64,000 nt of DNA, from sequence record PP925839.1; one strand, 5' to 3'. Positions 39,082-39,139 of the stretch are shown piece after piece. This DNA is from Escherichia phage PinkRuby. A model generated the notes under the pieces. It was not told the DNA's origin. It ran no database searches and saw only the letters and a list, made by a program, of their open reading frames with translations. The first letter of the stretch is position 1. Each line of letters starts with the position of its first letter. The position numbers and the translations under genes were made by a program.

Positions 39082-39109
39082 AAAGTCCTCATGTTATGTC
39101 AGTAAGATT

Positions 39110-39139
39110 ACTATAACACAACACGAGGGACTTGTAAAC
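39110..39139 (-). promoter_or_regulatory. early promoter, cassette copy B, upstream of alc
   Basis: Minus strand GTTTAC, 18 nt, TATAGT, then GAGGA SD and ATG 39081. Confidence 0.65.

Follow-up and report, generated by a model that had tools for sequence, protein, structure and literature searches.

A two-copy early promoter cassette at alc and alt.-3 of Tequatrovirus phages: a candidate translational gate that may have been copied between genes

The window analysed here, the whole 64,000-nucleotide stretch of Escherichia phage PinkRuby (PP925839.1), holds two nearly identical copies of a 54-nt unit which reaches from the −35 box of an early promoter to the Shine-Dalgarno (SD) sequence of the gene downstream, one copy serving alt.-3 (site 1) and the other alc (site 2). 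We consider it somewhat probable that this unit is a composite cassette of the PeSL type, in which the promoter spacer acts as an anti-SD sequence that gates translation, and that the alc cassette was copied to alt.-3. The wider proposal, that the alc spacer is a conserved anti-SD insulator in at least seven genera of the Straboviridae and that the module was moved to alt.-3 through ectopic gene conversion, is put forward more tentatively.

Anatomy and surroundings of the two cassettes

The original prediction described the sequence between rnlA and alc as the second copy of an element combining an early promoter with a ribosome-binding site, and this description holds at both sites (Table 1). 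Each copy is composed of GTTTACA, a 17-nt spacer, TGn, a −10 hexamer, a leader of about 22 nt, GAGGA and ATG, that is, TTTACA-17-TATAGT at site 2 and TTTACA-17-TACAAT at site 1, with a match to the sigma-70 consensus of 10/12 plus TGn in each case. GAGGA lies 4–7 nt from the ATG at site 2 and 7 nt from it at site 1. The alc gene has tandem ATG codons (39079–39081 and 39076–39078), the second of which is used in the T4 annotation. Upstream of the −35 element, where PeSLs carry an AT-rich, UP-like tract, A-tracts are present in the 3′ end of rnlA at site 2 and more weakly at site 1, in either case within the coding sequence of a genome that is itself AT-rich. The SD reads GAGGA and does not contain GGAG, on which ground a RegB target was rejected from the sequence.

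The genes flanking both sites are on the minus strand. At site 2 the predicted context was found, with the rnlA stop codon upstream and the alc start at 39081 or 39078 downstream. The other site had been labelled the alt-54 junction; it is really the gap between the second alt paralogue and alt.-3, gene 54 being convergent, on the opposite strand and past a bidirectional terminator. The two alt paralogues are full-length and in tandem, and account for the repeat families D2, D3, D7 and D8, which are 70–80% identical. In phage IME08 (L165, 307–627) the annotated start of alt.-3 falls inside the promoter; the likely start, ATGAAATCT, is 30 nt further downstream and yields a protein of the normal length of 96 aa.

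Expression data for T4 (PMC9697503, supplementary files 4 and 6) place both alc and alt.-3 in the early class, for RNA as well as protein; rnlA is early by its RNA and late by its protein, and alt belongs to the late genes. A terminator scan from the upstream gene to the cassette predicted none at either site. A terminator hairpin, AAAGGCCTTCGGGCCTTT followed by a T-run (27536–27560, minus strand), stands directly upstream of the alt late promoter and separates alt from the early gene 30/alt.1 unit. With this terminator and late promoter ahead of alt, late RNA should cross both alt genes into site 1. Neither cassette contains the late promoter sequence itself. Transcription from the cassette promoters would start after the −10 box; no T4 transcription-start map was found in the literature searched.

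Table 1. Features of the two cassettes and their surroundings (window coordinates), with the arms of the alc hairpin in seven genera
Feature	Position	Strand	Remarks
Site 2 cassette, 54-nt unit from −35 box to SD	39086..39139	−	rnlA/alc gap; 50/54 identical to site 1
Site 1 cassette, second 54-nt copy	23296..23349	−	second alt paralogue/alt.-3 gap; 50/54 identical to site 2
rnlA stop codon TAA	39143..39145	−	3 nt upstream of GTTTAC
Site 2 −35 element GTTTACA	39133..39139	−	T4 early type
Site 2 hairpin 5′ arm, AAGUCC-C-UCGUGUUGUGUU	39115..39133	−	promoter spacer; only in RNA started upstream
Site 2 −10 hexamer TATAGT	39110..39115	−	after TGn; in predicted hairpin loop
Site 2 hairpin 3′ arm, GACAUAACAUGAGGACUU	39083..39100	−	5′ leader including SD GAGGA (39086–39090)
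alc	38575..39081	−	PF17527
First alt paralogue	25410–27506	−	
Late promoter TATAAATA	27527..27534	−	upstream of alt; expected source of late read-through into site 1
Second alt paralogue	23349–25406	−	upstream of site 1
Stop codon TAG of second alt paralogue	23349..23351	−	its G also begins GTTTAC
Site 1 hairpin 5′ arm	23325..23341	−	promoter spacer
Site 1 −10 hexamer TACAAT	23320..23325	−	with TGn; −35 TTTACA at 23343–23348
Site 1 hairpin 3′ arm	23295..23310	−	including SD GAGGA (23296–23300)
alt.-3	22998..23288	−	96 aa, DUF5498; gene driven by site 1
Bidirectional terminator hairpin	22972..22993	.	between alt.-3 and convergent gene 54; ends site 1 transcription unit
alc hairpin arms, Tequatrovirus			GTCC-CTCGTGTT / AACATGAGGAC
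alc hairpin arms, Dhakavirus			TCTCCTCAT / ATGAGGAGA
alc hairpin arms, Gelderlandvirus			ATCTCCGTTTAGTT / AACTAAACGGAGAT
alc hairpin arms, Karamvirus			TCTCCATTTG / CAAATGGAGA
alc hairpin arms, Jiaodavirus			ATCCTCATCAG / CTGATGAGGAT
alc hairpin arms, Winklervirus			ATCCTCATTTCGTT / AACGAAATGAGGAAT
alc hairpin arms, Bragavirus			AACCTCTCATTTT / AAAATGAGAGGTT

The predicted hairpin over the Shine-Dalgarno sequence

The spacer has the sequence AAGTCC-C-TCGTGTTGTGTT and finds its complement in the leader and SD, GACATAACATGAGGACTT. This dyad had been overlooked in the original prediction, and it best explains the conservation of spacer and leader. Folding of read-through RNA gave −27.3 kcal/mol (z = −5.0) for site 2 and −23.1 kcal/mol (z = −3.9) for site 1, the −10 box being contained in the loop of the hairpin, and the in silico pairing probability of the SD was 1.0 and 0.82, respectively. 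RNA beginning just past the −10 box is essentially unstructured (−2.1 kcal/mol at site 2 and −0.9 kcal/mol at site 1). Searches with the Rfam covariance models returned chance-level matches only (E = 0.2 and 0.57), which fell well short of the gathering scores, and thus no known RNA family.

The proposed mechanism is as follows. Each copy would unite a strong early sigma-70 promoter and its short leader with the SD of the downstream gene, the promoter spacer doubling as the anti-SD. RNA entering from upstream (through rnlA at site 2, in late alt transcripts at site 1) would hold the spacer, the −10 box and the leader, and would fold into a long hairpin burying the SD and, at alc, also part of the start codon. 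RNA made from the cassette's own promoter would begin past the −10 box and thus lack the 5′ arm, leaving the SD free, so that translation would be tied to the activity of the early promoter and insulated from read-through. Translational occlusion of this kind is what the folding models lead one to expect in vivo; termination of a ribosome at the stop codon of the upstream gene might unfold the outer part of the stem. Since the occlusion is absent from alt.-3 in the other genera examined and from alc in NHEP11, Ac42 and L209, the gate is not essential.

The Tequatrovirus sequences are too alike to test the pairing, and covariation across genera was therefore used. Within Tequatrovirus seven stem variants keep the pair and two, A19C and G29A, break it, a difference that is not significant, and these substitutions were discarded as proof of structure. 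At alc the pairing between spacer and SD is kept, with differing sequences, in at least seven genera (Table 1), and in the six of these other than Tequatrovirus the bases right after GTTTACA exactly complement the SD region of the same genome. In an unadjusted MAFFT alignment of alc cassettes across genera, 88% of the cells are paired and compensatory changes occur in 6 of 11 pairs; the covariation score is 0.53, as against 0.25 for shuffles (none of 500 reached 0.53) and at most 0.16 for slid controls. The mean spacer-leader duplex is −20.3 kcal/mol for cognate and −10.5±3.3 kcal/mol for non-cognate combinations, the cognate assignment being essentially unbeaten in 20,000 permutations (p = 1e-4). 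IMG/VR supplied 29 distinct alc cassettes: in 23 of them the SD is paired, with a duplex of −15 kcal/mol or lower, three have a hairpin ending just ahead of the SD and three have none. The alc genes without SD occlusion include those of the Mosigvirus-like NHEP11, Ac42 and L209. Conservation of the hairpin at alc thus has good comparative support, and on the proposed reading the SD-occluding arrangement is ancestral there.

The rnlA-alc gap of VR7, a Gaprivervirus (L012, 160–393), holds an extra 77-aa ORF, as do those of L186, L187 and L210. This ORF duplicates the N-terminus of alc and follows a GGGG...CCCC stem that spans a GTGTAC −35 box, and the full-length alc is provided with an SD only and has no promoter of its own.

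The same stem-loop could be a terminator or attenuator as proposed for PeSLs, halting transcription from upstream and overlapping the SD incidentally. This was proposed and tested for a PeSL of RB49/phi1, where one RB49 stem-loop lowered lacZ expression as a strong terminator would (PMC2839356), and PeSLs of the T4/PST type have been described (PMC4122927). Moreover, four other early promoters in the window, with −35 elements at 47564, 35814, 31917 and 51574 (minus strand), carry inverted repeats spanning the −10 box (e.g. GGTACAGG...CCTGTACC and GGTAGAG...CTCTACC), the general PeSL architecture. The 3′ arms of these four dyads, however, stop short of the SD. Nor does either cassette resemble an intrinsic terminator: the stem is not followed by a U-run at site 1 (GAGGAACACAAAAUG), the corresponding sequence at site 2 is only CUUUAU, and the scan called neither, the terminator nearest to site 1 being the one past alt.-3. 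Finally, termination needs no 3′ arm that covers the SD while the rest of the sequence varies, as is the case in the 23 SD-pairing alc cassettes. We therefore hold termination with an incidental SD overlap to be an unlikely account of the cassettes, and keep to the reading of the spacer as an anti-SD.

Origin of the alt.-3 copy and exchange between the copies

The near-identity of about 55 nt that had been reported between the two sites is real, although the repeated unit is 54 nt long, as the base at 39085/23295 is mismatched. Its edges are exact: the homology begins with the G of GTTTAC and ends after GAGGA, and the four mismatches (93% identity) are all in or just past the −10 box. BLASTP did not align the Alc and Alt.-3 proteins, which fall into separate Pfam families; being unrelated, they rule out coding homology as an extension of the repeat. 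A 91-nt query found 997 places in 499 phage records, equivalent to two per Tequatrovirus genome, and no third copy in any genome of these records, so that a third or mobile copy is ruled out. The two copies of T4 are identical at 53/54 positions and those of some genomes at 54/54. The window region is 98–100% identical to Tequatrovirus genomes, Ge15 being identical across an 801-nt site 1 query and AR1 across the 91-nt site 2 query.

Elsewhere, alt.-3 has a different promoter. In Gaprivervirus, Mosigvirus, Gelderlandvirus and Karamvirus its promoter has a small hairpin wholly within the spacer (e.g. GCAC-AAGGAA-GTGC), and the pairing between spacer and SD amounts to −5 to −8 kcal/mol, as against −20.8 kcal/mol in Tequatrovirus; Dhakavirus has the same spacer-hairpin type by inspection. 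Among the genera examined the alc-type cassette at alt.-3 is confined to Tequatrovirus, which argues that it was copied there from alc. Transfer of the alc cassette, from −35 box to SD, onto the alt.-3 site is the simplest reading of this distribution. In the Tequatrovirus ancestor the alc cassette would have replaced the resident alt.-3 promoter through ectopic recombination, a direction and mechanism that the comparison of genera suggests.

The two copies may also still swap sequence through gene conversion. Of the 12 variants seen at each site, seven are the same base at the same position at both sites. The linked haplotype T11-T15-A16 belongs to the alc site in OE5505, but T2 and a metagenomic contig (L039) have it at alt.-3, and RB68 has A16 at both sites. 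With one change allowed per site, the sharing of 7/12 variants has P = 0.002; with only the 17 observed variants allowed, it matches expectation. Gene conversion between the copies thus seems to be continuing, and the shared variants could partly mirror identical constraints.

Replacement may have occurred in the reverse direction as well. In the Mosigvirus-like NHEP11 (L014, 341–400) the alc promoter lacks the anti-SD and carries a spacer hairpin of the alt.-3 type, ACACC-AAGGAA-GGTGT, so that it is similar to the alt.-3 promoter of the same genome, a weak hint that a cassette of the alt.-3 type was placed onto alc. Clustering of the 54-nt cassettes by gapped identity is noisy, with a baseline of 60–80%, and lends weak support to such a replacement in Mosigvirus. 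The NHEP11 record annotates alc from the rnlA stop codon, about 45 nt upstream of the likely ATG.

Both junctions had been marked as possible recombination points, and it was suggested that they be compared across T-even genomes for indels bounded by the repeat. In the PeSL shuffling model the copies would be homologous sites that bound insertions, deletions and excised mini-circles. A near-identity of 54 nt suffices for homologous recombination in T4, variants are common to both copies, and the extra ORF at the rnlA-alc junction of VR7, duplicating the alc N-terminus, could be read in the same way. Against this, synteny is kept at both junctions across some 450–500 Tequatrovirus records, and each genome has exactly two copies. 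Of 516 records, 493 have rnlA and alc in intact synteny; the site 1 junction comprises 447 full-length records and a T4-like class, and synteny searches of the Tequatrovirus records disclosed no cassette-bounded indel at either junction. In the T4-like class 1,699 bp are deleted within the second alt paralogue, between CTAAAAAGT repeats at 25060–25068 and 23360–23368. The downstream repeat, 9 bp in length, ends 11 nt upstream of the site 1 cassette, so that this deletion uses microhomology outside the cassette. Together with the loss of 1 nt in an A-run, which causes a frameshift, it produced alt.-1 and alt.-2 of T4 (L003, 7066–7451), which are the remnant of the downstream alt paralogue. Furthermore, the copies are direct repeats 15.8 kb apart, and the homologous interval of T4 includes 30 (DNA ligase), 31, cd and pseT; a reciprocal crossover would lose this interval with 30 and 31, and its product should not survive. 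Only non-reciprocal conversion between the copies would then be viable. What remains of the recombination-point claim is non-reciprocal copying, to which the Tequatrovirus-only cassette at alt.-3 and the shared variants point; the copies are not indel boundaries, and we regard a role as module boundaries as improbable.

Other repeats of the window lie in coding sequence. A tandem 288-nt repeat (77% identical) and at least three dispersed repeats of 68 nt or 33 nt occur at 11334–11909 and 53021–53946, and resemble protein domains or motifs repeated within structural genes.

A still less probable reading places the function of the dyad in DNA, as a cruciform or a protein-binding site at the −10 box that tunes the promoter, for example in its response to RNA polymerase modified by Alt/ModA. 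The selectivity of Alt for early promoters is unexplained and is not set by −35, TGn or −10 (PMC2988021), which leaves room for an element of this sort. The stems outside Tequatrovirus are mostly Watson-Crick, so that either strand folds alike and a comparison of strands is informative for Tequatrovirus only. There the stem has three G-U pairs, and the sense strand folds at −24.4 kcal/mol as against −15.4 kcal/mol for the antisense strand. In addition, the single-side changes are from G-U to A-U or from C-G to U-G, and the SD, which works at the level of RNA, is in every case the anchor of the 3′ arm.

Both sites fit the T4 early promoter consensus, and the possibility that this consensus, or chance, explains the similarity can be dismissed: among the nine instances of GTTTAC-N16-19-TAYNNT in the window the alc/alt.-3 pair reaches 50/54, no other pair exceeds 33 and the average is 24.1±4.4, shuffled sequence gave zero matches to the cassette pattern, and the identical stretch takes in the non-consensus spacer and leader.

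Relation to known systems and significance

The reading of the cassette as a promoter with an embedded anti-SD, copied from alc to alt.-3, joins two known kinds of element, the PeSL and the promoter-embedded occlusion of a ribosome-binding site, of which it is a fairly ordinary member. The structural definition of PeSL cassettes (Arbiol et al. 2010, PMC2839356; Comeau et al. 2014, PMC4122927) applies here. As in PeSLs there is a strong early sigma-70 promoter (TTTACW-N17-TAYWAT for the T4/PST pair) and a stem-loop over the −10 box, which is repeated within the genome and has been proposed as a substrate for homologous exchange. The differences are several. The stem reaches over the SD, which the covariation follows, and there is no terminator-like U-run; only two copies are present, 15.8 kb apart, and their surroundings are syntenic and for the most part conserved, whereas PeSLs flank ORFans in hyperplastic regions; and the evidence is of conversion, not of excision or insertion.

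Hairpins that occlude a ribosome-binding site and have a promoter embedded in them are known from T4 e, soc, 49 and I-TevI, with related cases in I-TevII/III, mobE and segB (PMC3014915). In those genes, as predicted here, the SD and/or AUG is paired in the long read-through RNA; the promoter lies inside the structure, so that a short RNA without the 5′ arm is translatable, as would be the case for alc and alt.-3; and the structure is conserved in relatives. The embedded promoters of e and I-TevI are late and expression is delayed, whereas the promoters here are early sigma-70 promoters and translation would be confined to the early period. Neither alc nor alt.-3 is among the RBS-occlusion examples of that paper (PMC3014915). 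The cassettes share with T4 early promoters (PMC2988021, PMC1524935) the GTTTAC −35 element, TGn, the TAnnnT −10 box and a location ahead of an early gene. The early consensus leaves out spacer and leader, the very segments that are identical between the copies and pair with one another here. No earlier description of SD occlusion at alc was found in the literature searched; older papers may mention it.

Alc acts within the first minutes after T4 infects, when it shuts down transcription of the host. No explanation for the early confinement of Alc synthesis was found in the literature searched. An early promoter whose spacer hides the downstream ribosome-binding site would, if the proposal is true, be a compact way of linking translation to promoter class, and such gating by an early promoter would mirror the late-gene cases of e, soc and I-TevI in T4, the phage that has been studied best. 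The putative transfer to alt.-3, followed by homogenisation, would be a concrete instance of regulatory rewiring through gene conversion of a promoter-RBS module: the phage would have changed the timing of expression by copying a 54-nt cassette onto an unrelated gene. Copying of cassettes in this manner would refine the PeSL shuffling model, and if the reading is extended, many PeSL stem-loops may likewise serve as translational insulators and not as terminators. For phage genome engineering, repeats of this kind, some 50 nt in length, can cause unwanted conversion.

Lastly, a different cassette is common to an unrelated group of contigs from IMG/VR and from metagenomes (L018, L020, L022, L033, L019, L026, L030 and others). 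It has the form GTTTACAAG...AAAAGGATTATAGTTTTCCTAAGGACG..ACGGAGGA-ATG and includes a dyad resembling AAAGGA/TTTCCT around a −10-like TATAGT.
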